Positions 36,544 to 64,000 of a stretch of 64,000 nt of DNA are shown here, in pieces. Origin of the DNA: an uncultured virus (IMG/VR IMGVR_UViG_3300040758_000220) (lineage: Duplodnaviria; Heunggongvirae; Uroviricota; Caudoviricetes); IMG/VR virus record IMGVR_UViG_3300040758_000220; one strand, 5' to 3'. The notes beneath the pieces are model-generated. The model had not been told where the DNA came from and searched no databases. It saw only the letters and a program-made list of their open reading frames with translations. The position numbers and the translations under genes are program-made. Within the stretch, counting starts at the first letter, position 1, and every line of letters starts with the position of its first letter.

Positions 36544-37477
36544 CCACAATCTCCAATACCCGGTCCGCCGCCATGAAAATCCCGCTGATTTTGCCTGAGA
36601 GCACCGATATCACCTTGCCCTGCTGGAAAACACGGCACGCCCTGCCTTCCGATAGTCCGGGCATCTTGGTTTTGTCCGAGATTTGCGGCCCCACGAAGCG
36701 GAAGATGTCGTGAAACGTCGGGAAGTGGCGGGCGACCTCATCCTCCATGGCGGCGCGTTTCGCTTCCACGTCCACGACCCCGTCCACCGGCGTGTGCCGC
36801 ACCGACGCCAGCGTGAAAATATCCGGCTCCTCGGTCGGATAGATCGCGCACAGCGGACCGTAGACCAGCATCACCGCGGGGAATGGCTGATTTGCGTGGT
36901 AGCGCAGCAGAATCGCCTGTTCATAGAAGATTTCTATCGGAACCGGGCAGAGATGGCCGTAGGTCGCATCGACCACGCGATCGAACGCCGCGACATCGGC
37001 CAGCGACACCGCACGGCCAAATTGCGCGACACCCGCCAGCCGGCGGGTAAAGTGCGCCCGCGCCTTCGCGGTCAGGATCAGCCGTTCACTGACCTGGATG
37101 CAGCCTTCGATGCCGGTCAGGAAGTCCGGCGCCGGCACGATGGTGAATGGCAACCCCGCCGCCTTCATGATCGTGCAGTAGGTCCGGAAGTCGAGCAGCG
37201 AGTCCCGCTCCGGCACCGCGTACAGGTTGACGGGAATCTCCCTGGTCAAGTGCGGGTAGGCTTGCATGAACCGATAGAAGCCGGCCCATGCCTGGACGCG
37301 CGTCTCGTGGTTGCAGGGGTAGTGGAAGCCTTGATGAAGGCGGAACTGGTTGTTGCCGGACGCCTCGTGCAGCAGTTCGTGGTTGCGCTCGAACAGCGTT
37401 ACGTCGTGATTGTGGTCCAGGAGGATGGTGGCGATGTGCGCGCCGAACCAGCCGCCGCCGATGATGGCGATGCGCAT
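36536..37477 (-). CDS. FAD-dependent oxidoreductase
   Basis: MRIAIIGGGWFG Rossmann motif, ASGNNQFRLHQGFHYP, SGKI; TAATG-coupled to the portal gene. Confidence 0.85.
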   Translation of the reverse strand: MRIAIIGGGWFGAHIATILLDHNHDVTLFERNHELLHEASGNNQFRLHQGFHYPCNHETRVQAWAGFYRFMQAYPHLTREIPVNLYAVPERDSLLDFRTYCTIMKAAGLPFTIVPAPDFLTGIEGCIQVSERLILTAKARAHFTRRLAGVAQFGRAVSLADVAAFDRVVDATYGHLCPVPIEIFYEQAILLRYHANQPFPAVMLVYGPLCAIYPTEEPDIFTLASVRHTPVDGVVDVEAKRAAMEDEVARHFPTFHDIFRFVGPQISDKTKMPGLSEGRACRVFQQGKVISVLSGKISGIFMAADRVLEIVGG

Positions 37478-47400: not shown

Positions 47401-47469
47401 CGGACTTATGGCGCAAGTGTCTAAGGAAACCTCTAGTCCCTGACTGCGACTCTTCCTACCATATACGGT

Positions 47470-47922
47470 ATGGAAAATCCAGACATCATCGCCGCCCTAC
47501 TCGCCAAGCGAGCCGAGATCGGCAAGGCAATCGCAGACCTGCAACGCCAGGAACGCAAGCGCAAGGCCGAGATGGTCCAGCTTGACGCGACCATCAAGCT
47601 GTTCGCCCCAAGCGTCACGCTGGCCAAGCGCGAGGCGACCAAGTTCGCCCGATCGGTGCATTTCGTGGTGGGGGAGCTATCCCGCCGCTGCAACCAGGCC
47701 CTCCGTGAGGCCAATGGGCAGCCAATCACGGCGGATATGCTGGCGGTGGCCGCGATGCGGGAGAAAGGTCTGGACTTGGGCGACGGGGAACTGCGGCAGG
47801 ACATCGGGCGCCGGTTCTTGTGGACCTTGGCCAGGATGCTGCCGCGCAAGGGTGTGGTCAGGGACGGGTACGGGGCTGGGGCTGGGTGGACGCTGCCTGA
47901 AGTTCAACGGCACGACGGCTAA
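47470..47922 (+). CDS. Coiled-coil plus winged-helix-like accessory protein
   Basis: L.AKRAEI...I.......LDATIKLF; F..GEL.R....LREA; similar to 62946-63362. Confidence 0.7.
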   Translation: MENPDIIAALLAKRAEIGKAIADLQRQERKRKAEMVQLDATIKLFAPSVTLAKREATKFARSVHFVVGELSRRCNQALREANGQPITADMLAVAAMREKGLDLGDGELRQDIGRRFLWTLARMLPRKGVVRDGYGAGAGWTLPEVQRHDG

Positions 47923-48354
47923 TATTTTTTTTGACACCGGCTGGCACGGTAGCGAGGACATCGTTCCCGGCGCGAGTCGGGCATCAAGATACAGTGCCGC
48001 AAGTGGGTCCAGGTGGACCGATGGCACAACATATAGCAGAAGGGGCATTCTTTCGGTCGAGTCGGCCGGCGCCCCGCGAAAGATTGTGTCGGGGCTGGAC
48101 AAAAACCGGCGTCCCTCACAAAATTTGTTGACAACTAGCAGATACCACCCCGAGTATCCTTTTCCACACAAGGTGGCCCCTTTCAATGGCTTCCTGAGGG
48201 AGGTTCTCATTGGACATGAGGATGGGCGCGTATGCCCGATGTCTGCCCGATGAGAAGCGCCCGCTGCGTGCCGTCGCGCTAGTGTGTTCCCGCCCTTCGG
48301 CGAATTCACGAGCAACCTCCGCTCGCCGTAACCATTCTTAACGGTAGATCGGGT

Positions 48355-48702
48355 ATGTCGGGAAGTGGAGGGGCCGGCAGCGGCCAGCGCACACATGGTC
48401 CATATCACAGGATACACACTCCCAGCCAGACCGAGCAGACGGCGCGCCTCCAGTTTGCCAGCGGTCAGGTATGGGGGCGCGAGGCAAAATGGAGTTCGCT
48501 TCTCTCCGTCAAAGCTTACCGGGGGCCGCTACCCCCGACGGACGAGGGCATCGAGTTCTACACCGATGTCCAACCCTCCCCAGGGCAACACCCTTCTGAC
48601 GTGTTCTGGTACGCCGGCACCCCTGGTGTCACCGTGGCGCCGATCGACGGTCGCGACTTCGCCATCATTACGGTGCGAATCACCACGTACCGATATCTGT
48701 AG
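48355..48702 (+). CDS. Small cargo protein, possible toxin
   Basis: YHR...VKAY.GPL....GIEF.TDV.P; abuts an acidic partner ORF. Confidence 0.5.
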   Translation: MSGSGGAGSGQRTHGPYHRIHTPSQTEQTARLQFASGQVWGREAKWSSLLSVKAYRGPLPPTDEGIEFYTDVQPSPGQHPSDVFWYAGTPGVTVAPIDGRDFAIITVRITTYRYL

Positions 48703-49065
48703 GTGAGTACGATGAAACGAGTGTACACAGCTACCGAGCCTCTCCCCCCGCTCGACCTAGCGCCGCAAGCGGTAGTGAATGTGTCGGTTGCGAAGCTCCA
48801 TCACGATCAAGGCATCGATTTTGAAAGCGGAGAGGATGATCTCGACACTTACAAGGCGGCTTATTTTCGATTGGACGACAATCAGATAGTTGCCCTAATC
48901 CATCACGCTAGAGAACCTCAAGGTAGCATAAGCATCTATCTTGACCGCGGCCTCGGACCTAAGCGGGTCAAAAAAGTGGTCCATGCGGTGATAACCAGCC
49001 TAGGAATTGCTGACGGGCTGGTAGGCTGGGTGGAAACGGAAGTCCTTCGGCCTCCCATAGTCTAG
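48703..49065 (+). CDS. Small cargo protein, possible immunity/antitoxin
   Basis: Acidic FESGEDDLD motif; starts 1 nt after the partner. Confidence 0.5.
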   Translation: MSTMKRVYTATEPLPPLDLAPQAVVNVSVAKLHHDQGIDFESGEDDLDTYKAAYFRLDDNQIVALIHHAREPQGSISIYLDRGLGPKRVKKVVHAVITSLGIADGLVGWVETEVLRPPIV

Positions 49066-49071
49066 CCGCAT

Positions 49072-50055
49072 TTACCCAGCCTTGTGCCTCTGCCAGTAGC
49101 CGCAGAAATCGACTGACGGCCCGTTCGACATCGCCAGCTTGACGGCGTGCTGCGTCTGCTCCCCATTCGAGACGCGCCGGTTATCCTCACGCCATGCGCT
49201 TTCGCGGGCATAGTTCGCCAGATATGCGCCGCTGATATGGTGAAAATGGCCGCGCTCGCCGCGCCGCAGACGCGAGAAGGCCGACTCCGCGAGGTTCGAT
49301 GACACGCCGTTCAAGCTATAGGCTTCGCCGTGGTCGATGCGGCTGACGGCATAGTGAGCGTCCAGCGGGTTCCAGGAAGACGCTTCGTCCACCACAATGT
49401 TCGATCCCTTGGCGACGTGGGCAGCGATCCAGCCGACCGATTGGGCTTCGGCTTGGAACACGCTGGACACGATCTTGCCCTCTCGCTCACGCGCGATCAC
49501 CACCACCTTGCGCTTGCCGGACTGATTGCGTGCCAGTCGCCGGTCGCGGCGGTTCTCTTTGAGGTTCGCGGGCCGGACGTGGCCTCCCGCGTACATGCCG
49601 TCTATCTCAACCGTTTTGCCTTCGCCACCGACCCGCGCGCCTTTCATTTCGGAACCGATGGCCTCGCGGATTTTGTGCATCAACACGAAGCTGGTCTTGT
49701 AGCTGGTGCCCAGATCGCGAGACAGAGCCAGCGCATTCTTGCCTTTGACTTCGTTCATCGCCAGCGCAATCGCGCATAGATAGACCTGCAACGGCATCTT
49801 GTGCGAGGCGAAAAGGGTTCCGCTCGATATGGAAAATTCCTTGTCGCAAGCCTTGCAACGCCACCGCAGCGGGCCGCGGGCGCGTCGCACGGTGTAATGC
49901 ACCAACCCGCCGCAGTATGGGCACACCGGCTCCCCATTGGTCTCTGGCCAGCGGATGCGGGCGAACAGCAACTCGGCGTCTGCGTTCGACAACCGCATGA
50001 CGTGCGCCAGTGTGAGGGTCTTGGCGGCGGGGGAGAGTAGGAAGTGCTGGGACAT
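49072..50055 (-). CDS. IS1595-family DDE transposase
   Basis: RWP...PVCPYCG...CKAC Zn ribbon, VEIDG, VVDE, IDH, SNLAES. Confidence 0.95.
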   Translation of the reverse strand: MSQHFLLSPAAKTLTLAHVMRLSNADAELLFARIRWPETNGEPVCPYCGGLVHYTVRRARGPLRWRCKACDKEFSISSGTLFASHKMPLQVYLCAIALAMNEVKGKNALALSRDLGTSYKTSFVLMHKIREAIGSEMKGARVGGEGKTVEIDGMYAGGHVRPANLKENRRDRRLARNQSGKRKVVVIAREREGKIVSSVFQAEAQSVGWIAAHVAKGSNIVVDEASSWNPLDAHYAVSRIDHGEAYSLNGVSSNLAESAFSRLRRGERGHFHHISGAYLANYARESAWREDNRRVSNGEQTQHAVKLAMSNGPSVDFCGYWQRHKAG

Positions 50056-50166
50056 GGCAACATCACCACATTCGATGTATCTACCCCGAATGTGATGGCG
50101 ATATTCACCGTTGTCAAGGGTAAAAACATCGGATACGATGATATTTCACATCGGACGGAGGGCGAT

Positions 50167-50394
50167 ATGCCCGAGGAGCACTGGCAGAAGCGGGTGAAGG
50201 GGATTCTGAAGGCCGAACTGAAGCGCCGGCATGTCGGCTACAAGGAACTGGCCGAGAGGCTGCACACCGTGGGGGTGGAGGAAACCGACCGGAACATTGC
50301 CAACAAGATCGCGCGTGGCGGGTTCAGCGCGGTGTTCTTTGTTCAATGCCTACAGGCTATCGGGTGCCATACGGTGCATCTTGAAGACGCCTAG
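50167..50394 (+). CDS. DUF6471-like HTH regulator
   Basis: W...VKGILKAELKRR.V.Y.ELA..L...G..ET..NIANKI.RG.FSA.FF.QCL. Confidence 0.85.
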   Translation: MPEEHWQKRVKGILKAELKRRHVGYKELAERLHTVGVEETDRNIANKIARGGFSAVFFVQCLQAIGCHTVHLEDA

Positions 50395-50419
50395 GCTTCG
50401 GGGTGAGGTTCCCTGCGGC

Positions 50420-51358
50420 TTGAAGGTCGCAGGGACTGCCATCTTCCTCGCGTTGCTCGCCGCGTATGTCGGCACATACATAGTCAGCCAGTACCGCCAA
50501 ACGGAGCTATATCAGCCAACCCCAAGTAGCAGGGATGGCAGTCGCGACCCACAATCCCATCCCCAAACATCCAACCAGCAGACTGGCGATGAGCCAAGCG
50601 GCACCGAGCAGAAACCGTTCGTCGTAAAGGTAGCCCCATCCCCGGAGGCTCAACCCGAGACACCCGAACAGCGAGAGGCCCGCAAAGCAAAAGCGACGGA
50701 TGACCATCTGGGCGTTGTATTCTCTGGCATCGCCGCCTTCGCCACGGTTCTCTTGGTGTTCGTAACCGGCGGCCTGTGGGTTGCCACTTATCGGCTGTAT
50801 CGCGGAACCCTGCGAGCCATCAAAGGTGAGGAAAAGGCCGCCAAGGCCATGAGCGATCTGGCGACAACTGCCGACAAGACCGCTGAACGGCAGCTTCGAG
50901 CATATGTGTTCGTCGAGAACGCATGGGTCATATGGGTGCCAGACGAAGATGATCTGTCTAGAGATGAAAATGTCAGATTCACAGGCAAGGACCCATGGTA
51001 CGTTCTGTATAAGTTGAAAAACTATGGCGTCACTCCTGCCTATAAAACGCGTGTCAAGCATGTTGCGACCGTAGTTAACTGGCCGCCAGACGGTCTCCCG
51101 ACGCCTGTAGACGGTGACTACTTTGGGACCGTCGCGCCGAACGAAGACTTTATCGACAACGAGACCACCAAGGTCGAGGGAATGCCGCTCGGAGAAATTA
51201 TAGCTGAATACAAAGCCGTTATGCTCATCGGCCGCATCGACTATCTCGACGCGTTCAGCAAAGAACGATGGACCGAATTCTGTTACTACTTGAATGGCAC
51301 CATTCCCGACGATGGCGAGATGTCCATTCACGACGCCGGAAACGAGTCCGACCAATAG
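50420..51358 (+). CDS. Membrane-anchored cargo protein (start uncertain)
   Basis: Two TM helices; ERQLRAYV, LKNYG.TPA and GRIDYLDAF motifs; lower GC. Confidence 0.65.
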   Translation: MKVAGTAIFLALLAAYVGTYIVSQYRQTELYQPTPSSRDGSRDPQSHPQTSNQQTGDEPSGTEQKPFVVKVAPSPEAQPETPEQREARKAKATDDHLGVVFSGIAAFATVLLVFVTGGLWVATYRLYRGTLRAIKGEEKAAKAMSDLATTADKTAERQLRAYVFVENAWVIWVPDEDDLSRDENVRFTGKDPWYVLYKLKNYGVTPAYKTRVKHVATVVNWPPDGLPTPVDGDYFGTVAPNEDFIDNETTKVEGMPLGEIIAEYKAVMLIGRIDYLDAFSKERWTEFCYYLNGTIPDDGEMSIHDAGNESDQ

Positions 51359-51487
51359 CGCAACCGTCATTGCGATGCACCTCACATGCATAGCACTCGT
51401 CCCTTGCATCTGTCTCATTTATGGTATATTCAGGAAAGTGCTAGTGCTGGCCTAGCGGTTTCCTTAGACACTTGCGCCATAAGTCCG

Positions 51488-54588: not shown

Positions 54589-55028
54589 TCCCCAGCCTCC
54601 AACGCGGCCAAGACCTCACGCTCGTTAATGCAAATTTGGCCGCAGAGAAGCGCCATCAACTCCGGCTCCTCGCCGTTCCGTGTCCAGACGATGGTGCGTT
54701 TCCCAGCACCAGCCATCCAGCCGATCTCAAGATGCGCCGATCGGCCGCACGGCAGGAACAGGATGCCGACATCGGCCCATTTCATGCCGTCGAAGTCGCT
54801 GTTGAAGCCCCGCTGCGCGAGAGGATGTTTCAAGTGCTCGCGATATTGGTAGGACGTCCAGCCTTCCCAGTTCGGGTCAAGCTCTGACCACCGAAATCCG
54901 TTTGTAATGCCGCCGGGTGGGTTGCGAAAATCGTAGACCTCATGGCCATGCGACCGCAAGATTTCAACAGCGAACGGCTGGTTGGCGTTGCGCCAGCTTG
55001 AGGCGAGATAAATCTTACAAGGAGTCAT
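54585..55028 (-). CDS. Nucleoside 2-deoxyribosyltransferase-like/TIR-like fold protein
   Basis: KIYLASSWRN, GHEVYDF, D...M.WAD, PCGRSAHLEIGW. Confidence 0.7.
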   Translation of the reverse strand: MTPCKIYLASSWRNANQPFAVEILRSHGHEVYDFRNPPGGITNGFRWSELDPNWEGWTSYQYREHLKHPLAQRGFNSDFDGMKWADVGILFLPCGRSAHLEIGWMAGAGKRTIVWTRNGEEPELMALLCGQICINEREVLAALEAGE

Positions 55029-55183
55029 CTATATAATTCCCCAAGCAAATACATATTCGCCGATCTTCTTCGTCGCGGCGTTATCGAGCAGCCGCTTCAA
55101 CAAAGGATGCGACTGGTAGATTTGTGCAAACGCCCGTTTCTGCGCGGGCGTCAGTGGGTTGTTCGTTGCCGGCAGATCGACCA

Positions 55184-55390
55184 TTACTCCCTCCTGCTCC
55201 CCGGCGTCTTATCGACACAGACCGTGATAGAGTACCGCGTCCCGGCACCACCTTCTGGCCGCGACCAGCGGTGAACCCACTCGTTCGTGGCCGCCCGCCA
55301 TTCGGCCTGGTGGCCGGCGGCGCAATGCTTGCACCCGGCGCGCACGCTGACCTCGGGCGGCTTGGTGGGCGGCGGGGCGGTTTCGCTCAT
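55184..55390 (-). CDS. Small hypothetical protein
   Basis: ATGA-coupled. Confidence 0.45.
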   Translation of the reverse strand: MSETAPPPTKPPEVSVRAGCKHCAAGHQAEWRAATNEWVHRWSRPEGGAGTRYSITVCVDKTPGSRRE

Positions 55391-55791
55391 CCCGCAACCT
55401 CGCGCGCCGCAGCCAAGTGCTTGCCGGGCGGCTCCGGCTTGCGCTCGGGCGTTTCCACGACCGCCGGCCGGCGCAGGTATTCGGCGCTGGGTATGAACGC
55501 GTAACCGGGTTCAGTGGCGATCTCCTCTGGCGTGATCATTTGCAGTTCGAGGGCGTCGCGCGCGTTATACCGCCAACTCTGACTGATCAGGAAGAATCTG
55601 AACTCGACAACCGCTTCGTTCATCATCTCCGGTGACCACGTGACAGGCGGCGTTCCCGGATGCCGGTAGCATCGGGCATGAAACTCGCCGCCCTCGAATA
55701 CCCCGGCGACACGCTCAGGCACCATCAGCAAGCCAATGCAGATACCCGCATCGTCCACCAACTTGAACCACGCGCCAGAGAGGCGTTTCAT
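55387..55791 (-). CDS. Hypothetical protein
   Basis: ATGA-coupled on both sides. Confidence 0.55.
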   Translation of the reverse strand: MKRLSGAWFKLVDDAGICIGLLMVPERVAGVFEGGEFHARCYRHPGTPPVTWSPEMMNEAVVEFRFFLISQSWRYNARDALELQMITPEEIATEPGYAFIPSAEYLRRPAVVETPERKPEPPGKHLAAAREVAG

Positions 55792-56329
55792 GGCTGCGTT
55801 CTCGCAATCGAGCGGATCAGCGGCATCCAGGTCTCCCCCAGCTTGTAGGCGCGGCCATCGCCCGCGAGTTTTAGCAGCAACTCACGGTCTTCGGGCGCCA
55901 GTGAAGCCCCGGCAATAGCATCCAGATACCTAGCCGACACCGCCAGCAGCAGCGCCCGTTCATCCGCAGTCACTTCCGCCCGCCCCGACCCTTGTGTGGC
56001 CTGCCGCACGCCATCAGCCGGCCCTCCCCTTGTCGTTCAGGACGAACTCCTTGGCATCCGACCGCCACGCCGGCTCAGCCTTTTCGCCGCGGTCGCAGAC
56101 GCCGACCGGGCGGGTGACGACGATGTGCTTCACTTCGGGTTTTGTGTCAGCCATGTCGGGTGCTCCTGAACTACGAACGACTGGATCGACGCTTGCTGCG
56201 TTTCGCGGCACGCTTCTGGCGGTATGCTGCCGCAACAGCTTGCTTCGCGGGGCGCCCCGACCGAACCATTTCCCTCACGTTGGACCGGAAAGTGGCATCC
56301 GATGAGCCGGTTTTCAGCGGCATAGCACC

Positions 56330-56569
56330 TTACCCCGCAGGCGGCTGTGTCGGCGTCAGCGAATATGTTTCGCCGGCGTGCGACTTGGTGAGCCGCGCCT
56401 CCAGCGCCGCGATCTCCGCCGTGAAGTGGGCGAAGATCGCCTCGAACGGGTTTACCGCGCCGTGCCAGGGGCGAGCTTCGTCGGCCGGCGCCTCGGGCGC
56501 CGGCTCGGCGGGCGGCGTTGGTTCGCCCGCCACTTCCGGCAATGCCCCGGCTTCCTCTGTCCCGCTCAC
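56330..56569 (-). CDS. Hypothetical protein
   Basis: GTGA-coupled. Confidence 0.5.
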   Translation of the reverse strand: MSGTEEAGALPEVAGEPTPPAEPAPEAPADEARPWHGAVNPFEAIFAHFTAEIAALEARLTKSHAGETYSLTPTQPPAG

Positions 56570-56778
56570 GGCGTCACCGCCGGGGCTGGGACCGGCAGCA
56601 GATACGCCTCGACCTCCCCGGCTCCCTTCACGATATCCGCAACCGAAGGCGGCGGCGTGGTCGGGATGCGTTCGATCACCTTCAGCATGTATTCCAGCGC
56701 ATACCGCCGGCGTTCCTCATCGACCGTTACCGGCGTCGGCGGGGTTGCCGGGGCGTCTCCGAACAAGGCCATTTTCAT
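56566..56778 (-). CDS. Hypothetical protein
   Basis: AGGAG RBS. Confidence 0.55.
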   Translation of the reverse strand: MKMALFGDAPATPPTPVTVDEERRRYALEYMLKVIERIPTTPPPSVADIVKGAGEVEAYLLPVPAPAVTP

Positions 56779-56799
56779 TCTCCTGTTTCAGCCGTTCCG

Positions 56800-57372
56800 T
56801 CATACTCCAACCCGCGCGCCCGGTTCCACCATCCCGCGCAGCCGGTAGACCGAGGACAGCCCCACGCCCAGTTCCCGGGCCGCGATCGCGGGGCCGAATT
56901 CCGCCGCCATCTCGCGCACCCGCGCCGGGTCGATCGATGGCTTCCGGCCCTTGTATTTGCCCTCGCGACGCGCCTTGGCAACGCCCTCGCGCTGGCGTTC
57001 CAGCATGATATCGCGCTCGAAAGCCGCGATCGCCGCGAGTACGGTGAGTAGCAGCCGGCTGGTCGGATTCCGGGTATCTAGTCGCTCTCCCCCCATCGAC
57101 AGCAGGATCAACCCGACACTACGGCGCGTCAGGTCGTCGATAATGGTCAGCAGGTGCGCCGTGCTCCGCGCCAGCCGGTCCGGCTTCGTCACCACCAGCA
57201 CGTCGCCCGACGCCAGCGACGCCAGGCACGCCTCGAACGCCGGACGCTTGCCGACCGAGGATGCCTGTTCGGAGACGATCCGCTCGGCGCCGGCGGCGCG
57301 CAGGTCGCGCTCCTGCGCCGCGAGGCCGGCAATCTGGTCCTGGGTGCTCGTCCTGGCGTAACCGATAATCAT
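56800..57372 (-). CDS. Small serine recombinase (resolvase/invertase)
   Basis: IGYARTSTQDQ catalytic Ser, GDVLVVTKPDRLARS, ERQREG, C-terminal HTH. Confidence 0.95.
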   Translation of the reverse strand: MIIGYARTSTQDQIAGLAAQERDLRAAGAERIVSEQASSVGKRPAFEACLASLASGDVLVVTKPDRLARSTAHLLTIIDDLTRRSVGLILLSMGGERLDTRNPTSRLLLTVLAAIAAFERDIMLERQREGVAKARREGKYKGRKPSIDPARVREMAAEFGPAIAARELGVGLSSVYRLRGMVEPGARVGV

Positions 57373-57557
57373 GCTTCACCACCGTAAATCCGCCGGCAAC
57401 AGTCTTGGCCTCACGGATGGCCGCGTCGCAGCCGCGCGCTCCTCCGGGGTCGCGGCGCGCGGCGGGTGCAACCATCTGGAAATGCGGCCACCGGGGTCGG
57501 TCGCCACATACCAGACCACGAGGCCGATCCACAGACCGAGAGCATATCCCAGGGCAA

Positions 57558-57894
57558 TCACGCCGCCCGCCTCTCCGCCGCCATGATGCGGTAGACCGTC
57601 GTCCGCGATACTCCGAGCGCCACCGCTGCGGCCTCCGGGCCGATCTGTGCCACCTTCGCCTTCACGTCCGGGCGGCTGATGGTCGGCTGCCTTCCCTTCA
57701 TCCGCCCCTCGGCGCGCGCCGAGGCCATGCCGCGGCGGACGTTCTCGGAACGGATCGCGCGGAGTTCGTCCTGCATGGCGCGGACCAGCGCGAGGCAGCC
57801 GGCGGCGCAGTTGGGGCATGGCGGCGTGTTCGGACAAAGCCGCGTGGTGGCGATCCTGGCGGCGAGGCGGAGGTCGATGTCGTTCGTGGTCATG
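57558..57894 (-). CDS. Resolvase C-terminal (arm plus HTH) protein with Cys-rich N-terminus and no catalytic domain
   Basis: ENVRRGMASARAEGRMKGRQP...LGVSRTTVYR; start approximate. Confidence 0.65.
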
Positions 57895-58050
57895 CGTCCC
57901 TTATGACGTTGCGTTGGGTGGGTGTCAAGGGGTATCAGATACTCCAAAGGAGACCGCTGATGGCTGGATTGCGGTATTATGTAGCAACGGGCACCAAATC
58001 GGATTGGGCCGGATCGGCCCTAATCCCCACCTACTTCTGGTAGGTGCGCC

Positions 58051-58569
58051 GTGAGCGAGAGGGGGCTTGTTCCAGGGCAGGTTGACCGACCCACTGCCAG
58101 AATTTATCCATTCCCCCGCATGGCAGCGCCTCAACCCTCTGCGACGGAGGAAGCCGGGAGCACCCCTGTGTCGGCCTCGGCGGCGCTTGTCGAGACCGCG
58201 AGGGAACCCGCGAGAGGCTTTTTGATAGCGGCGCGGCGAAACTTGACTGAACAAGACTTGGACACCCCCGCGGCGCGTCGATTCCTCATCGCCGAAATCG
58301 AGCGGTTGGATCAAATTTGTTCGGAGCACGGGGAGCTGACTACCAGATTTCACAACCAGAGGGTCCAAATTGCGGAACTGCTGGCAGACGGCAAGGCGCA
58401 GCGGAAAACCGATTTTCTCTCGAATGTCTGTCTTGCGGCGGGGTTCACCGGCATGGGCGCGGCGCCCGCTTATCTTACCCTAGCGGGCGGGGTTGTGTAT
58501 GGTGTGGTGATTCTCCTGGGATCGGCCTGCTTGGCGGCGGCCAGTATTATCTCGAAAGTTCGGAAGTGA
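58051..58569 (+). CDS. Cargo protein with coiled coil and two C-terminal TM helices
   Basis: Hydrophobic hairpin at the C-terminus. Confidence 0.65.
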   Translation: MSERGLVPGQVDRPTARIYPFPRMAAPQPSATEEAGSTPVSASAALVETAREPARGFLIAARRNLTEQDLDTPAARRFLIAEIERLDQICSEHGELTTRFHNQRVQIAELLADGKAQRKTDFLSNVCLAAGFTGMGAAPAYLTLAGGVVYGVVILLGSACLAAASIISKVRK

Positions 58570-58946
58570 CGCTCGCGTTCATCAGGATTGAGGACGCGGG
58601 CGATCTTCCTCGTGAGCGCGTCATTTTGAGGGCGCAGGCAGACGTTGACGTTGGGATGTACGCCCTCCTCCAAGGCGCCGCGATTAAGGAGGATAGTAAG
58701 CCGGACAACACGGCGGTTTATGCAGGCGCGCAGGCGAACGCTTTTTGGTTTCCCCGCAAGGAGATAAAGAAAAGCGATTGGGTTGTCGTTTATACAAAGG
58801 CAGGCGATCGGAGCGAGAAGGCCGCCGAAAACGGCCCTACCTCGCACTTCTACTATTGGAGGAAGGGCCGAGTGATCTGGTCTCCTGGAACGGCGGTGAT
58901 AGTTTTATACGCTCCGTCCTGGGAAATAGGGCCGCCGGTTCCGTAA
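58566..58946 (+). CDS. Cargo beta-sandwich protein (lamin-tail-like)
   Basis: GTGA-coupled; ERVIL......G.Y, FWFP...I...D.VVVYTK.G, FYYW.....IW. Confidence 0.6.
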   Translation: MTLAFIRIEDAGDLPRERVILRAQADVDVGMYALLQGAAIKEDSKPDNTAVYAGAQANAFWFPRKEIKKSDWVVVYTKAGDRSEKAAENGPTSHFYYWRKGRVIWSPGTAVIVLYAPSWEIGPPVP

Positions 58947-58950
58947 TCGG

Positions 58951-59193
58951 CTAAAGGTCCGCCAGCGCCAGCACCGTGATTCCAAGCACGGTCAGGCAGG
59001 CCAGGAAGAACGTCACGGAGAAGGTTCCGCGCGCCAGTTTGGCCGTAACCGATCCCTCCGTCTCCCCCTCGAATCCGTGCTCCCGGAGCCGGCGGGCAAG
59101 CTCGGCATAGGTCACGTCTGCCCGCTTTAGCTCGGCCTTGAGCAACCGACGCGCCTTGTCGGCCCACTCCTTCTCTTTGGTTGCAAGCCCCAT
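58951..59193 (-). CDS. DUF6471-like HTH regulator
   Basis: W...ARRLLKAELKRA.VTY.ELA.RL; paralogue of 50167-50394. Confidence 0.85.
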   Translation of the reverse strand: MGLATKEKEWADKARRLLKAELKRADVTYAELARRLREHGFEGETEGSVTAKLARGTFSVTFFLACLTVLGITVLALADL

Positions 59194-59302
59194 CTGGCTA
59201 CCTCACTTTTCTGTCCGGACCCTGACTAATATGTCAGTTTCCTGTTGACAAAGCAAGGTCAGCATCCTTATATATCTGTCAGCAAGCAGACGGATATGTA
59301 AG

Positions 59303-60289
59303 ATGTCCCAACACTTCCTCCTCTCCGCCGCCGCTCGCACCCTCTCCCTGGGCGCCGTGCTTCGCATGACCCCCGAGGAAGCCGAGGCGGCTTTCCGGTC
59401 GATCCGCTGGCATGACACAGATGGCAAGCCGGTGTGCCCGCACTGCGGCTGCCCCACGGTATGGGACTGCCGCAAAGCCAATGGCGCCCCGCGCTGGCGT
59501 TGCAAGGCGTGCCGCAAGTGCTTCTCGGTCACGTCCGGGACGCTGTTCGCGTTCCACAAGCTGCCCATCCGCGATTACCTCGCGGCCATCGCCATCTTTT
59601 GCAACGAGGTGAAGGGCAAATCGGCCCTGGCGCTGTCCCGCGATCTGGGGACACAGTACAAGACCGCTTTCGTCCTAGCGCACAAGCTGCGCGAGGCGAT
59701 GGCGTCGGAACTCAAGGGCCTGATGGTGGGCGGACCCGGCAAGGTCGTGGAAACTGACGGCGGCTATTTTGGCGGCTACGTAAAGCCGGCCAACTACAAG
59801 GAGAACCGCCGCGACCGCAGGCTGGCGCAGAACCAGAACGGCAAACGCCAGGTCGTGGTGGTGGTCCGGGAGCGGGATGGGCGCACCCTGCCGGCCGTGT
59901 TCAAGTCCGAGGGCGCCGCGCTGGGGTTCATAACGTCCCGCGTTGCCAAGGGCACCGAGCTTGTGGCCGACGAAGCCGCGTCGTGGAATGACCTACAGGC
60001 CCGGTTCGCCATGCAGCGGATCGACCACGGGCAAGCGTACTCGGATCGCGGCGTCTACTCGAATGGCGCCGAAGAGTTCTTCTCCCGGATGCGCCGGGGC
60101 GAGATCGGGCACCACCACCACGTCGCCGGGCCGTATCTGATCCGCTACGCGCAAGAGGCGTCCTGGCGCGAGGATCACCGGCGGGTGGACAACGGCCGGC
60201 AGGTCCAGGGCGTGATGGGGCTGGCGATGGCTTGCCGGCCGAGCGTGGACTGGTGTGGGTACTGGCAGAGGGCGCAGAAGGCGGCGTAG
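59303..60289 (+). CDS. IS1595-family DDE transposase
   Basis: Zn ribbon CPHCG/CKAC, VETDG, VADE, SNGAEE; clearly homologous to 49072-50055. Confidence 0.95.
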   Translation: MSQHFLLSAAARTLSLGAVLRMTPEEAEAAFRSIRWHDTDGKPVCPHCGCPTVWDCRKANGAPRWRCKACRKCFSVTSGTLFAFHKLPIRDYLAAIAIFCNEVKGKSALALSRDLGTQYKTAFVLAHKLREAMASELKGLMVGGPGKVVETDGGYFGGYVKPANYKENRRDRRLAQNQNGKRQVVVVVRERDGRTLPAVFKSEGAALGFITSRVAKGTELVADEAASWNDLQARFAMQRIDHGQAYSDRGVYSNGAEEFFSRMRRGEIGHHHHVAGPYLIRYAQEASWREDHRRVDNGRQVQGVMGLAMACRPSVDWCGYWQRAQKAA

Positions 60290-60295
60290 CGCCAC

Positions 60296-60790
60296 TCAGG
60301 CCGCTTCCGAGTATTCCTTCACTGGGCCGGGCTGATTGTCCACTAGCGCATCAAATTCCGCGTCTCTCCGTTTCCGAAGCATTTCGGTGGCCCACCGCAT
60401 CAGACTGGTGGATGGCGCCCCACGCTTGCGCATCATCTCCAGTTGGGGGGGCACATAAAGGAGTGACTGAGTATGGCGCTCGGCAAGTCGTCCAAGCGCT
60501 TCGCCGCGCCCGGTGTTGGCCCAGGCCCACTCGAAATCGTCCTTGAGGAATTCAAACGGCGTTGCTAATCTGTCCCGCAGGACGCGCCCCACGAGCCCAG
60601 CCTCTTGCTCCTTGAGACGGACGCGGGCGATCAGTCCCAAAACGCGTACAGGACCGTATGTCATCTCGGCGATGACGCCGAGAGGGATGATGTGGCCGGC
60701 TTCCCGTTGCAGATCGCAATGGTACACGATGCGCGACAGGGTGAGGCGACCCGGCCGGATCGCTACCACGTTGTCGGTCATCAAACGCAC
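60296..60790 (-). CDS. DUF3037-like partner of a HipA-like kinase
   Basis: IVY..D.......IPLGVI pattern; directly downstream of the kinase. Confidence 0.55.
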   Translation of the reverse strand: MRLMTDNVVAIRPGRLTLSRIVYHCDLQREAGHIIPLGVIAEMTYGPVRVLGLIARVRLKEQEAGLVGRVLRDRLATPFEFLKDDFEWAWANTGRGEALGRLAERHTQSLLYVPPQLEMMRKRGAPSTSLMRWATEMLRKRRDAEFDALVDNQPGPVKEYSEAA

Positions 60791-60794
60791 TCCT

Positions 60795-61595
60795 TCAGAC
60801 GCCCAACACGGCCCGAAGGCCGGTCCTTCGGGCCAGCAGGTTACCTAGTATGTTCGCTCGGAATGGCTGTGGCAAGTAGAACATAGGGAGTCGGTTCACC
60901 AGCCTGGCAATCTCCCCTTCGGGGAGAGCGCATATCCGATCGGCTGTTTCGGCCATCACGTCGGCGTGATCCGCTCCCGGCAGCCCAGGTCCCAGGAGCG
61001 CGACCGGGCTGGTTGGCCCTTTCCAGCTATAGGACATGGAGTGGCCATGATCGTAAAAACCGGTCTGACCTTCCTCGTCAGGGCTGTCTAAGTTGAAATT
61101 GACGTGATCGAGCTTCCGGTCGCCATCGCCGATCCAAGTGTGGAACACCCGCATGGCGGAAAATGTCGGCAGGGCGCCAGACGCCTGCTGCCCCGAGATA
61201 AGGTTCCGCTTGGCAGCCTCATTCCATTTCATCGACTGATGAAAGGCCCAGGCGGATATTGATCGCCCCAGCTTGTATTGTCCTGGCGCAGATGCGCCCC
61301 AAAGGACAACAGGACAGACCGGGAGAGCGAGTAGATAGGCCAAATCGAACGCCAGTTTCTCGTGGGCCGCTCGACAATGTCCGGTCTCGCCGCCCTTGTT
61401 TGGCCCCGGCTTAGCGACGCCGCGCACCCCGCTAATCTTGTTAACGACATTGATGGATTGGGATTCCCCTTCCGGGAGAGCCGCCCCCTCTCTCCACTCA
61501 TCAGGTGATGTCTCAATCGTCGCAAACCACTCATCTCGGAAGGACCGTTGAACTACCGAAAATCGTACTGCGGCCGCTGTGCGCCGACCACTCAT
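60795..61595 (-). CDS. HipA-like (PI3/PI4-kinase fold) protein kinase
   Basis: VAK, HEKLA.DLA..L.LPV.P, FHTWIG.GDR, YDHG, L..RR. Confidence 0.75.
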   Translation of the reverse strand: MSGRRTAAAVRFSVVQRSFRDEWFATIETSPDEWREGAALPEGESQSINVVNKISGVRGVAKPGPNKGGETGHCRAAHEKLAFDLAYLLALPVCPVVLWGASAPGQYKLGRSISAWAFHQSMKWNEAAKRNLISGQQASGALPTFSAMRVFHTWIGDGDRKLDHVNFNLDSPDEEGQTGFYDHGHSMSYSWKGPTSPVALLGPGLPGADHADVMAETADRICALPEGEIARLVNRLPMFYLPQPFRANILGNLLARRTGLRAVLGV

Positions 61596-61765
61596 GGCAA
61601 TTCACTCCAATAAAGTGCCCCACGGTGGCATCCCCGGATGTGACAGAAGATAGGTCCCACGCGAGGCACTTCGTCAACTAGATATGGGCGCGTCTTGCCC
61701 TGGTTACCCCCAAGATACGCGATTGTGGCCGACTCGGCACAATCGGACGAGTCGGTCGCCTGATT

Positions 61766-62536
61766 TTAGGCAGCGCCGTCGGACGGGAGCAGAGAAGCGG
61801 CTAGGCGGCTGCGAGCAAGGCCCGCTTCTGCCCTATCGAGGTCGCGTCCGATTTTCGACCGGCACTGAGCCAGAAGGCGCCCGTCAACGCTTGACGGTAG
61901 GCCCCGCCCCATCTCCCACATATCATGAACGGCCGCGACATCGGACGGGGTTAGTCTGGGGGCAAACTGAGAGACGACATCGTCTATGGCGACTTGGACA
62001 TCCGTGGCCTGTTTCGTCGTCCCGTCGATCTCGCCCTCCGTGATTTCTGATGTCGAGTAGATGCCCTTCTTGGTGGGAACCGCAAACAACATGCCCTTCT
62101 GCACCATTCGATAAAGCTTTGATGTCAACTGGTTACGCTTGTGTATTTCCTTAGTGGCCTTGTACAACCCGATCAATATCCTATCCAGCGATAGGATGCC
62201 CCCCGCCTCATTGATCAGATTGAGAATGGCGAACTCAAGCTTGTCGGCGTTCGACACGCTCAGCTCAGCCAACAGTTCCTCGGGAAGGTCTGCGACGTCC
62301 TCCGGTGTCAGTGTCAGCCGCTGGGCCAACCCAGGGCGAACGGCGGCGTGGCCGGCCGTTGCGGCGTCTAGCTCCCTTTGTGCGGCCACCAAGCTATCCG
62401 CGAGGTTAGCGAATTGACTTGCTGACTGAATATGACGATCATGACGCCACGGCTCCCCCGCATAGCGGTGGGCTAACTTCTCGTGAACTCCCTGTTGTTC
62501 CTTGACAAAAGGGAGATAGCTAACTAGATTGCTCAA
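61766..62536 (-). CDS. Winged-helix-like protein downstream of the atypical tRNA
   Basis: AGGAG RBS plus TTG start about 20 nt after the tRNA CCA; LSLDRILIGLY...LTSKLYRMVQKG....V..KKGIY wHTH pattern. Confidence 0.7.
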   Translation of the reverse strand: MSNLVSYLPFVKEQQGVHEKLAHRYAGEPWRHDRHIQSASQFANLADSLVAAQRELDAATAGHAAVRPGLAQRLTLTPEDVADLPEELLAELSVSNADKLEFAILNLINEAGGILSLDRILIGLYKATKEIHKRNQLTSKLYRMVQKGMLFAVPTKKGIYSTSEITEGEIDGTTKQATDVQVAIDDVVSQFAPRLTPSDVAAVHDMWEMGRGLPSSVDGRLLAQCRSKIGRDLDRAEAGLARSRLAASLLPSDGAA

Positions 62537-62556
62537 GCTCAGTCTCCTAGATTGAG

Positions 62557-62650
62557 TGGCGGAAGGGGCGGGATTCGAACCCGCGGTACCCCGGCTAGGG
62601 GGTACGAGGTGTTGGTAGCACCCCGGCATAGGCCGCTCGCCCACCCTTCC
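62557..62650 (-). tRNA. Atypical tRNA: serine-type body with Gly anticodon ACC
   Basis: GGAAGGG TG GGCG AGCGGCCTA TGCC G GGGTG CTACCAA CACCT C GTACCCC CTAGCC GGGGTAC C GCGGG TTCGAAT CCCGC CCCTTCC G CCA; all stems pair and CCA is encoded. Confidence 0.92.
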
Positions 62651-62774
62651 ACGATGCACCGGCACCATTGCCGGCATGTCTTCGTCTTCTTCCTCTGCAG
62701 AACCACACACACTTCCGTATCAATATCGCGAAGGGGCTTGTGCCGTAGCGGTGCAGGCCCCTTCCGCGTTACGA

Positions 62775-62803
62775 ATTATAGGCGAAGACGAACCGAATTG
62801 TAA
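62775..62803 (-). promoter_or_regulatory. Sigma70-like promoter upstream of the tRNA
   Basis: TTACAA-N17-TATAAT (consensus -10) on the minus strand. Confidence 0.6.
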
Positions 62804-62945
62804 GTAGAGGCGAGCCGGCTCGTGGCCGGCGCGTGAGTAACGCGAATTTGTTCGCATTCCGTCCCATGACGCGCGACTAGATTGGTTTGAGTCGCAATTA
62901 TGCGACGCGCCGAAAATGGGAGCGGGGCGTCCGCGAAATGGCGCC

Positions 62946-63362
62946 CTACACCAGCGCGCGCCGCGTCGCCTTCCCCATCCCCACCGTCCGCGCCATGCCC
63001 CGGGCCTGGAGCTTGCCGAACGTCTCCCGGAGCTTGGTCCGCGTCCGCTTCATGGTGTGCCGATCCGGGAACCGGACACCCTTCGCCCGGAGCGCGCCCA
63101 GCGCCATGTCCCGAATCGCCAGCGGCTTCTCGGCCTCGCGGAGCATGTCGATCGCCAGCCGGCGTAGCTCGCCCCGCTTGAAGATCGGGTTGGGCTTGTG
63201 GAACCGGGGCGGCAGCTTGAGGTCGGGGGCGATGGCCTGGATGCGGGCTTCTAGGTCCGCTAGCTTGTCGCGGTAGCCCTGAGCGAGCGTCTCGGCTTGC
63301 TTCAAGGCAAAGTGGCAGCGGGTCCGGGCGCGGCGGAGCTTGGTTAGGTCTGTGTCTTTCAC
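62946..63362 (-). CDS. Coiled-coil plus winged-helix-like accessory protein
   Basis: FKRGELRRL....LREAEKP; same position inside the IR as 47470-47922. Confidence 0.7.
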   Translation of the reverse strand: MKDTDLTKLRRARTRCHFALKQAETLAQGYRDKLADLEARIQAIAPDLKLPPRFHKPNPIFKRGELRRLAIDMLREAEKPLAIRDMALGALRAKGVRFPDRHTMKRTRTKLRETFGKLQARGMARTVGMGKATRRALV

Positions 63363-63431
63363 GCCGGATATGCTAGAGAATCAGCGGCTTGGAGGCTTTG
63401 GCCTTGTGGTGCCCGTTGCTACATAATACCG

Positions 63432-63709
63432 CTGGATTGCCCGACATGGACCTGTTCTCCTACGCCCCACCCACCTCCCCGACCCCACGCGAGGAACCCT
63501 CCGCCGCCCTGTTCCCGGATGCCACGCCGCCAGAGCAGGTGCGGTGCTCCGGTGATTGCGTCTGGATCGAGTTTGGGCTGGCAACGGCTGAGAGCGGGTG
63601 CGAGATGTGCCGGGCGATTGATCTGGCGTCGGGGGTGTACGTGCCGTTTGCGGTTACGGTGCGGGAGGTGTTTGGGGAGGCGGTTGACGACGCGGCTATG
63701 TCGGGCTAA
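63432..63709 (+). pseudogene. 3' part of a phage gene split by IS1595 element 2 (5' end: ATG at 57960)
   Basis: AAGGAG RBS plus ATG GCT GGA TTG at 57960 joins CCC GAC ATG... after the element is removed; an internal ATG could allow a restart. Confidence 0.65.
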
Positions 63710-63742
63710 TGTTGTGGGAACGCCGCCATAAGGGGTCCGCCC

Positions 63743-63961
63743 ATGCCTTCCGATCAATTCCGCGTGAGTGTTTACCTACCCCGGGATGCGGAAGCGGTGG
63801 TCCGCAGCATTGCAGCGCGGCGCGGGATAGGTGTCAATGCCGTGTTCCGGCTGGCGCTTGGTGTTCTCCAGGCCCATGAGGATGCGCGGGAAGCTGGGCA
63901 GTATGTCGGCACGACGCGGGTGCGGGAGCATTTGGAACAAGTGATCGTGGCACCGCTCTGA
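63743..63961 (+). CDS. CopG/RHH-like DNA-binding protein
   Basis: RVSVYLP.......V..IA..RG.....VFR.AL. Confidence 0.65.
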   Translation: MPSDQFRVSVYLPRDAEAVVRSIAARRGIGVNAVFRLALGVLQAHEDAREAGQYVGTTRVREHLEQVIVAPL

Positions 63962-64000
63962 CGCCTCACTCGGCAGTGCCGTGATCCCCCCAATCGAGAC

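Follow-up and report, generated by a model that had tools for sequence, protein, structure and literature searches.

The 64,000-nucleotide (nt) stretch of DNA analysed here, called the window in the following, comes from the uncultured virus record IMGVR_UViG_3300040758_000220. Near its end, on the minus strand, a promoter, a leader, a tRNA with a serine-type body and the anticodon ACC, and a gene for a winged-helix protein follow each other. Judged by sequence comparison, this locus belongs to a conserved type of cassette that insertion sequences carry and that recurs in many bacteria; the cassette is apparently undescribed so far. The reading that we favour is an RNA-RNA toxin-antitoxin module, in which the toxin is a mistranslating tRNA, a cis-antisense RNA acts as antitoxin and the winged-helix protein is an autorepressor. 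We put the chances of this full combination at about even; its parts are graded below on their own evidence.

Anatomy of the cassette

The features of the cassette in the window are the following:

61766..62536, minus strand: protein gene, TTG start at 62536, 256 codons, stop at 61766
61963..61978, minus strand: lone IS1-type end motif, the single match in the window, where the family similarity ends
62502..62530, plus strand: antisense sigma-70-type promoter (TTGACA, 17 nt, TAGATT) inside codons 3-12 of the protein gene
62537..62770, plus strand: predicted cis-antisense RNA of about 235 nt, its ends deduced from the promoter and hairpin positions
62557..62650, minus strand: tRNA with a 7/5 serine-type body and anticodon ACC (ARAGORN; Rfam tRNA 43.8 bits, E 1.9e-7)
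62657..62676, minus strand: small hairpin directly 5' of the tRNA, with a 6-nt loop of the UAUGGU type
62727..62768, minus strand: GC-rich leader hairpin found by folding, predicted terminator for the plus-strand antisense RNA
62775..62803, minus strand: sense sigma-70-type promoter (-35/-10), 10/12 in a consensus scan, same position in relatives
62798..62837, minus strand: predicted operator, imperfect direct repeats with an 11-bp pitch, the last copy on the -35; a putative binding site

The -10 promoter, leader, tRNA, AGGAG and 256-codon gene that a previous sequence-only reading had described are all present on the minus strand. The -10 is a perfect match to the consensus, the leader between promoter and tRNA measures 124 nt, and the spacer between tRNA and gene is 20 nt long including the AGGAG. 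The tRNA is the only Rfam family matched over the window stretch and 15 loci, and leader plus tRNA gave no match among plasmids. The small hairpin before the tRNA recurs in 38 of 66 tRNA loci, with stem sequences that vary and pairing that is kept.

Serine identity of the tRNA

The window tRNA has an encoded CCA, a 7-bp acceptor stem, a 5-bp T stem, a 4-bp D stem with a GG-containing loop, a 7-bp variable arm and G73, and its anticodon would read the Gly codon GGU. Scored against host tRNAs, its core is closest to Ser (43, compared with 36 for Tyr and 27 for Leu), and it carries the G1-C72, G2-C71 and A3-U70 pairs that are also found in the Ser tRNAs of the two hosts G002 and G003. ARAGORN labels it Gly because that label rests on the anticodon. 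Bacterial tRNA-Gly has U73, C2-G71 and a short variable loop; we reject this assignment, as the window tRNA has G73, G2-C71 and a long arm instead.

The same identity is seen across the relatives described below. Among 51 parsed tRNAs, G1-C72 occurs in 50, G2-C71 in 48, A3-U70 in 42, G73 in 41 and the long arm in 49, and all 51 share the 7/5 acceptor/T stem of the window tRNA (the parser sought 7/5, and other folds are counted as unparsed). In their acceptor, D and T parts, 60 of 61 cassette tRNAs are nearest to a host tRNA-Ser, the comparison set being the long-arm tRNAs of two carrier genomes, with two short-arm members not judged. The anticodon stem is fully paired in 64/68 despite 44 different sequences, and the loop is canonical (U33 in 65/68, A37 in 63/68). 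The anticodon is nevertheless a non-serine one in 67/68. Seryl-tRNA synthetase (SerRS) recognises its substrate by the long arm and G73 and disregards the anticodon, according to a review (PMC7609411), and serine charging is proposed on this ground. It is thus very likely that the cassette tRNA inserts serine at the codon that its anticodon reads.

A few members deviate. In two loci (L045, 4898-4970, and L078, 1551-1626) the cassette tRNA is of the short-arm kind, with an alanine anticodon and U73, and the G3-U70 pair is missing; from their sequences, these two tRNAs are possibly mistranslators of another amino-acid identity. The sole serine anticodon (L021, 977-1074) comes with an odd D arm and A73. 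By eye, a CUAG-like word recurs in the variable-arm loop (62587-62592 in the window, and many loci).

Homologues and linkage to the tRNA

A word-indexed homologue search gave 38 proteins out of 3979 candidates, and a profile search 997 representatives at E up to 0.001, 188 of them at 1e-30; a viral scan with the single protein gave no match. We retrieved 110 loci, from metagenomes (80 of 92, confirmed), genomes (26), one viral record, two phage records and one plasmid record. The carrier of L098 is a cultured Pseudochelatococcus isolate. After removal of duplicates, of 5'-truncated genes and of forms reduced to the winged helix, 84 distinct two-domain loci remain, in which L097, from the unpublished genome G006, counts as one row in every tally. 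Most tRNA calls were made by ARAGORN or a custom parser, that of L042 by Rfam and four by eye.

In 68 of the 84 loci, a tRNA precedes the gene by 17-94 nt on its strand; ten have none and six end too soon. The suggestion that atypical tRNAs stand consistently upstream of homologues holds for 68 of the 78 evaluable loci, a share that describes the clade around the query, and it does not hold in an unbiased sample of 1203 genomes (0/7), where the cassette is rare per genome. The 68 tRNAs carry 21 different anticodons: TAG 12, GTC 8, ATC 6, TAA 6, TAT 5, TTA (ochre) 5, GCG 4, TAC, TGG and GAT 3 each, ACC and GTT 2 each, and nine seen once; serine is represented in only one tRNA.

In a quick tree, sister loci with good support frequently carry different anticodons (L024/L034, L047/L063, L031/L041, L061/L099), and in some pairs the anticodon is the same (L050/L058, L057/L075, L010/L014, L043/L049). 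In the locus nearest to the window copy, L007, the leader and the acceptor, D and T arms are kept, while the anticodon and variable arms differ. A clade of tRNA-less loci (L079, L080, L081, L108, L110) has a different conserved leader hairpin between the terminator and the start codon. At L050 (62-153), a second, irregular tRNA-like gene lies directly upstream of the cassette tRNA, a tandem that resembles the polycistrons of irregular 7/5 tRNAs mentioned in the available text of PMC5389517.

Codon avoidance

If the tRNA is active while the protein is made, the protein gene could be expected to avoid the codon concerned. The sequence-only reading had counted no GGT among the 17 Gly codons of the window gene (8 GGC, 7 GGG, 2 GGA), had called this statistically weak and had noted that the neighbouring kinase does use GGT. 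The counts are correct, including those of the kinase (GGT in 4 of 27 Gly codons), and so is the caution: a GGT share of 14%, taken from 35 long open reading frames (ORFs) in the window, some of them possibly spurious, gives a P of about 0.07, and three other ORFs among 41 counted are also free of GGT. Taken on its own, the absence of GGT in this gene is no more than chance.

The depletion of the cognate codon across homologues, proposed as a check, is on the other hand borne out. For codons 14-170 of the 62 loci with a non-serine sense anticodon, with the expectation taken from GC-matched relatives, the Watson-Crick cognate codon is observed 111 times against 161.5 expected, and 0 of 5000 label permutations are as low, a p value that is too small, as the loci are related. 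Counts are below expectation in 16 of 19 anticodon classes, and the observed/expected ratio for CNN anticodons is 0.23 (3 loci). As far as codon counts can tell, the direction of the avoidance indicates that the cassette tRNAs take part in decoding, and do so during synthesis of the protein. The ochre-suppressor versions (L026, L029, L030, L032 and L062, one clade) have genes ending in TAA in 4/5 cases vs 25/79 for the others, and read-through of the protein gene by the ochre tRNA may act as feedback.

Antisense promoter and terminator

The conserved N-terminal F-V-K of the protein is coded such that the opposite strand reads TTGACA, with the -10 at codons 3-4. The Val11 codon is GTC in 59/62 vs 14/60 at Val153. 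A strict match to the antisense promoter is found within the first 54 nt of 65 of the 84 genes, compared with 0-3/84 in eight other windows, and synonymous recoding leaves at most 48/84. It is present in 62/74 tRNA-bearing or truncated loci vs 3/10 tRNA-less ones.

The GC hairpin just after the sense start is, in the family, preceded by more A than it is followed by T (4.4/8 vs 3.0/8, n=73, p 1.6e-7), i.e. it would be a terminator mainly for the opposite strand. The predicted antisense RNA spans the protein's ribosome-binding site (RBS), the tRNA and the leader; its predicted length is about 190-260 nt in loci with the tRNA and 85-125 nt in those without. A 179-nt contig of unknown strand from an RNA library is identical to 62546-62724, inside the predicted 62537-62770. 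One RNA run is listed (X1, share 0.11), and its contigs lie over neither the protein gene body nor the promoter, which is no proof of absence. From these signals, we consider it highly probable that the cassette is under antisense control. A leaderless upstream ORF was also considered and rejected: an ATG near the start occurs in 25/63 loci vs 2, 3, 9, 17 and 24 in five control windows, and such an ORF is absent from the window and lacks a cognate-codon pattern.

Protein fold and predicted operator

The winged-helix-like character assigned to the protein by the sequence-only reading is confirmed by AlphaFold2 and fold searches, which give an N-terminal helical hairpin (4-65), linker helices and a winged helix (about 93-164). 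The model of residues 1-186 has a pLDDT of 90 and consists of a long helical hairpin and the winged helix. Its top structural matches are generic winged helices (Z 9-11 across about 65-80 residues), with no enzyme fold among the best; Foldseek with the model returned nothing at E 0.001 or less, the PDB sequence search no match below E 0.05, and the protein is unmatched in Pfam, PADLOC, NCBIfam and PHROGs. Z-RNA binding, as hinted by Z-alpha matches (Z about 10), was rejected since these are tied with cullin, PadR and other winged helices, in a structural search that barely probed the N-terminal hairpin. Weak matches to Pfam MazE_antitoxin in 7/148 members (best E 0.002) are not borne out by the helical/winged-helix model.

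The length of 256 aa is right for the ORF, but homologues are mostly 164-200 aa long. The likeness to the nearest locus stops near codon 180-190, at the lone IS1-type end motif, and the last 70 residues, beyond about 186, are by this comparison probably an accidental tail.

Upstream of the promoter, direct repeats are found. Over the 96 nt that lead to the sense -35 in 62 loci, with -35 positions assigned by consensus score, 4-mers recur at lag 11 in 142 cases vs 29 in shuffles (z 16.7) and at lag 22 in 73 vs 27; the window copy has 5 lag-11 matches. The signal is densest between -45 and the -35 hexamer, in phase with it, and 48/62 loci contribute. Direct repeats one helical turn apart that end on the -35 would suit head-to-tail binding of a winged-helix protein and a block of the polymerase. 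We regard an autorepressor as the somewhat more probable role of the protein, with an activator acting at the repeats as a possible alternative. Short relatives with the winged-helix half only and no tRNA (L105, L106, L134, L136, L137) are preceded by tandem or direct repeats, which agrees, as far as sequence can suggest it, with a family of repeat-binding proteins. General heat-shock or SOS control was rejected, CIRCE and two LexA patterns matching 1, 3 and 0 of 76 promoters. At L016, a CIRCE-like palindrome overlaps the sense promoter.

Association with insertion sequences

The cassette of the window lies within an insertion sequence (IS):

57972..63431, 5460 bp: IS1595-family transporter insertion sequence carrying the cassette, from its terminal repeats and target duplication
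59303..60289, plus strand: IS1595-family transposase (Pfam DDE_Tnp_IS1595 E 6e-34; NCBIfam NF033547 above cut-off)

Transporter insertion sequences of the IS1595 and IS1 families with passenger genes are a known class, and the element shares the features of the IS1595 type: the family transposase, perfect terminal inverted repeats of 25 bp (57972-57996 and 63407-63431), an 8-bp target duplication (57964-57971 and 63432-63439) and internal passengers. The literature search turned up no tRNA-based cassette as an insertion-sequence passenger.

Of the 94 distinct loci compared, 28 have an IS1-like transposase behind the gene, on the same strand and nearly always directly adjacent, and 22 have an IS1595 transposase nearby, located upstream or convergent. 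A transposase stands beside 45/84 loci, and beside 28/41 of those with long flanks. Terminal repeats surround the cassette in 4 of 8 loci checked, and paired IS1-type ends, of a pattern defined after inspecting these very sequences, in 5/142, two of which are shared with the terminal-repeat loci. At L089 the element is 2.35 kb long and holds little beyond cassette and transposase. Over the 94 loci no other defence-type neighbour family recurs, except for a restriction-type pair in two tRNA-less loci.

Proposed mechanism

We now turn to how these parts could work together. One sense transcript would hold the leader, the tRNA and the protein gene. The tRNA would be serylated and place serine at the codon it reads, here GGU, and enough of this would damage the proteome; charging and toxicity are deduced from the established SerRS rules and from the allo-tRNA experiments, in which, by the available text, Ser-charged allo-tRNAs with Leu anticodons were lethal to E. 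coli (PMC5389517). The strong promoter in codons 3-12 would yield a fully complementary antisense RNA ending at the leader hairpin, which would block both tRNA maturation and translation of the protein. Because it is cis-encoded, this RNA would track any anticodon change automatically, leaving the anticodon arm free to vary.

The winged-helix protein would be made only when sense RNA escapes, and would then bind the 11-bp repeats and shut the promoter. The gene of this feedback brake avoids the codon being misread; the fold, the repeats and the avoidance are observed. Upon loss of the element or a stop of host transcription, e.g. by phage infection, the antisense RNA would decay first and the tRNA would be released, with addiction and possibly abortive infection as the outcome. 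We believe that the tRNA probably has the toxin role, with a confidence that is moderate.

A number of observations weigh against this picture. On the side of the tRNA, G73 is absent from 10/51 parsed members, and the window copy has G11-C24 where 5/7 correctly read host Ser tRNAs have C11-G24, a minor tRNA-Ser identity element; this pair varies among host Ser tRNAs as well and is given low weight. Gly-to-Ser exchange at one minor codon may be mild. The avoidance is only partial, with observed/expected ratios of 0.49 for UNN but 0.90 for GNN and 0.89 for ANN anticodons, and with 2 observed vs 3.0 expected codons in the ACC class itself.

Nor is the linkage universal. Ten of the 78 evaluable loci lack a tRNA, and the figure of 68/78 is inflated because the search was centred near the query. 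The unbiased profile search, over 1203 genomes (3 x 401), gave seven new hits, none with a tRNA: five short forms, the divergent L142 and the full-length L141. The last of these keeps the sense promoter, the hairpin and the antisense promoter, and antisense control of an autorepressor that stands alone is difficult to account for. As to the RNA, the antisense U-tract of the window copy is weak and the terminator scan made no call there, while the contig is a single record from one study, with no strand, so that a sense precursor or DNA carry-over is possible. Finally, a control window further upstream shows weaker periodic peaks at lags 12 and 22. The whole case is one of sequence analysis, in which toxicity, charging and any defence role are predictions.

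Alternative explanations

The alternative that survives best is a SymE/SymR-like type I system, in which the winged-helix protein is itself the toxin, acting e.g. by coating DNA, and is restrained by the antisense RNA; the tRNA would have been added to the leader later, as a second toxin or helper. The coverage of the protein RBS by the antisense RNA is consistent with this, as are the tRNA-less loci L002, L102, L110 and L141, which keep promoter, hairpin and antisense promoter. The codon avoidance would likewise fit a protein that needs to work while the tRNA is active, and SymE is described, in the available text, as a transcription-factor fold turned toxin with an antisense promoter within its coding sequence (PMC1891008). 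However, the best structural matches include no enzyme fold, the repeat array over the protein's own promoter points to autoregulation, and fewer of the tRNA-less loci have a strict antisense promoter (3/10, with five of the ten in one clade). This explanation is in our view unlikely.

Another option is a switch that does not kill, governing transposition or a mild, tolerated mistranslation. The sense promoter would read into the transposase and be tuned by protein, antisense RNA and tRNA, or the tRNA would be a decoy or regulatory RNA. The adjacent same-strand transposase in 28/94 loci and the compact L089 element speak for it, as does the finding that the GNN and ANN classes hardly avoid their codon; in addition, some allo-tRNA groups near transposons do not translate, according to the available text of PMC5389517. 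Against it, the transposase is upstream or convergent in the 22 IS1595 loci, and that of the window stands on the opposite strand at a distance of 1.5 kb. Decoding is indicated by the canonical anticodon loops and by the codon avoidance, and a triple control would exceed the needs of a harmless RNA. We judge such a switch to be rather improbable.

The sequence-only reading had proposed that the protein is the antitoxin, repressing or binding the tRNA, which would be released on infection and poison Gly-rich phage proteins. The linkage to the tRNA, the repeat array and a weak AbiEi-likeness of the winged helix agree with this, and the part in which the protein controls the tRNA stands insofar as a repressor role fits the fold and the repeats. 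The primary antitoxin, however, looks like the cis-antisense RNA: the proposal leaves the conserved antisense promoter and terminator unexplained, and with a promoter in the first 12 codons and an RNA covering its RBS, the protein cannot be standing guard. The glycine-specific poisoning has to be abandoned, as the 21 anticodons show no glycine bias, ACC occurs in only 2/68 and the other ACC locus, L018, has GGT in 3 of its 12 Gly codons. The anti-phage role fares no better. Only one viral locus and two phage records were found, none with an upstream tRNA, and the neighbours are transposases, not defence genes. We found no evidence of a defence role for the cassette in these analyses, and as it is an insertion-sequence passenger, maintenance of the element is at least as likely as anti-phage defence. 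Overall, we consider the proposal quite improbable.

That the tRNA is an integration-site remnant or a pseudogene decaying by chance, for which one could argue that tRNA genes are common integration targets and that ACC is, to our knowledge, not a normal bacterial anticodon, is largely refuted by the family data and very improbable indeed, given the fixed position and strand in 68/78, paired stems with many sequences, 21 anticodons, codon avoidance, and hosts G002 and G003 that retain their own Ser, Leu and Tyr tRNAs elsewhere.

Relation to known systems

Returning to the RNA-RNA module that we favour, it can be compared with four known systems, whose published descriptions are cited here from the text available. 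The closest in content are the allo-tRNAs (PMC5389517; review PMC7609411), which also combine serine identity with non-serine anticodons and favour a similar set (UAU, GCG, GUC, Leu and ochre in common). Lethal mistranslation was shown for two of them, and in soil metagenomes they were reported in the vicinity of toxin-antitoxin genes and of ORFs related to transposons (PMC5389517). Their definition, however, calls for 8/4 or 9/3 stems together with a Sec-like D arm, whereas cassette tRNAs have ordinary 7/5 serine bodies; the window tRNA, with its 7/5 stem and 4-bp D stem, lacks the Sec-like long D stem with tetraloop and was rejected as an allo-tRNA. That text, locus maps aside, mentions no fixed partner gene, antisense RNA or operator, and the text of its supplement gave no hit for transposase, antisense or promoter.

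As analogies go, the cassette works like a type VIII or a symE/SymR-type locus. With symE/SymR of E. coli (PMC1891008) it shares an antisense RNA, in the cassette a predicted one, that faces the 5' end and starts from a promoter within the coding sequence, here a sequence signal in 65/84 loci, as well as a transcription-factor fold and a link to mobile elements. SymE has an AbrB fold and is LexA-controlled, SymR is 77 nt long and there is no tRNA; the cassette, unlike this, has a helical protein model with a winged helix, 11-bp repeats and a predicted antisense RNA of 190-260 nt that spans the tRNA. The type VIII systems SdsR-RyeA and CreTA (PMC10767807) have RNA as both toxin and antitoxin, in SdsR-RyeA on opposite overlapping strands; for the cassette, an RNA antitoxin on the opposite strand is a candidate, with conserved promoter and terminator signals and one RNA contig that carries no strand. 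Neither of their toxins is a translating tRNA (CreT sequesters tRNA), and the description given there assigns neither system a dedicated winged-helix gene or a place on insertion sequences.

AbiEi, whose DNA-binding domain represses its own promoter via inverted repeats (PMC7319586), shows a weak profile likeness to the family, in 12/38 members (E up to 0.1, best 2e-4), the window protein itself giving no match, and in an Atlas lead (0.85). An assignment to AbiE was rejected: an adjacent nucleotidyltransferase is absent from the recurring neighbours, all of them transposases or ORFs linked to IS elements, with annotation covering only part of the single neighbours.

We found no description of this cassette in the literature, subscription papers being mostly outside the search. 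Whether it represents a new class of module, selfish or defensive, whose toxin is a working tRNA that rewrites one codon, is doubtful at present, and we offer the idea only tentatively. In TADB 3.0 the tested type VIII families, and with them the tested RNA toxins, are only two, creTA and SdsR-RyeA (PMC10767807), and in neither is the toxin a decoding tRNA. A codon-programmable tRNA toxin would be categorically new.

The anticodon arm would then be a swappable specificity cassette with 21 versions, each swap being tracked by the antitoxin at no cost; the variety may be driven by conflict, hitting hosts or phages by their codon use, and a stop of host transcription would trigger abortive infection. 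Allo-tRNAs have been known since 2016, with no purpose or control described for them, and such a cassette would supply the missing genetic logic for those near transposons. It would also mean that mobile elements use corruption of the genetic code as a weapon, explain a class of tRNAs mislabelled by annotation that relies on the anticodon, and offer natural inducible missense and ochre suppressors. In less than 1 kb, the cassette is a complete circuit of predicted toxin, antitoxin, promoters and operator, in dozens of natural versions.

Other features of the window

The window is phage-like, with major head and terminase-like matches among its genes. The 5460-bp element appears to have inserted within the first codons of a small gene, which it splits: an RBS and start codon are left at 57949-57971, and the remaining frame is on the right (63432-63709). 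The empty site was not found, the right flank being absent from viral contigs, and no part of 55000-64000 is matched by the nearest virus record (G001).

The further passengers of the element are a DUF6471 gene, small ORFs of no named family and a kinase pair:

60296..61595, minus strand: HipA-like kinase (60795-61595; ESM Atlas HipA_2) and 164-aa partner, downstream passengers

Neither member of the pair recurs beside distinct homologues in the neighbour clustering, which places both outside the conserved cassette, and the 164-aa partner has no family match in the libraries searched. Together they are probably a second toxin-antitoxin pair within the same element. A 138-aa ORF at 62946-63362, of no listed family, is seen again in 12 distinct loci, and an IS1595 transposase is present in the majority of these.

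A second IS1595-family element is located at 47401-51487, with terminal repeats of 40 bp, an apparent 8-bp target duplication, a transposase at 49072-50055 and passengers of no named family. A further transposase-like gene (35335-36549; phrog_506, E 1e-101) lies amid the phage head and terminase-like genes.

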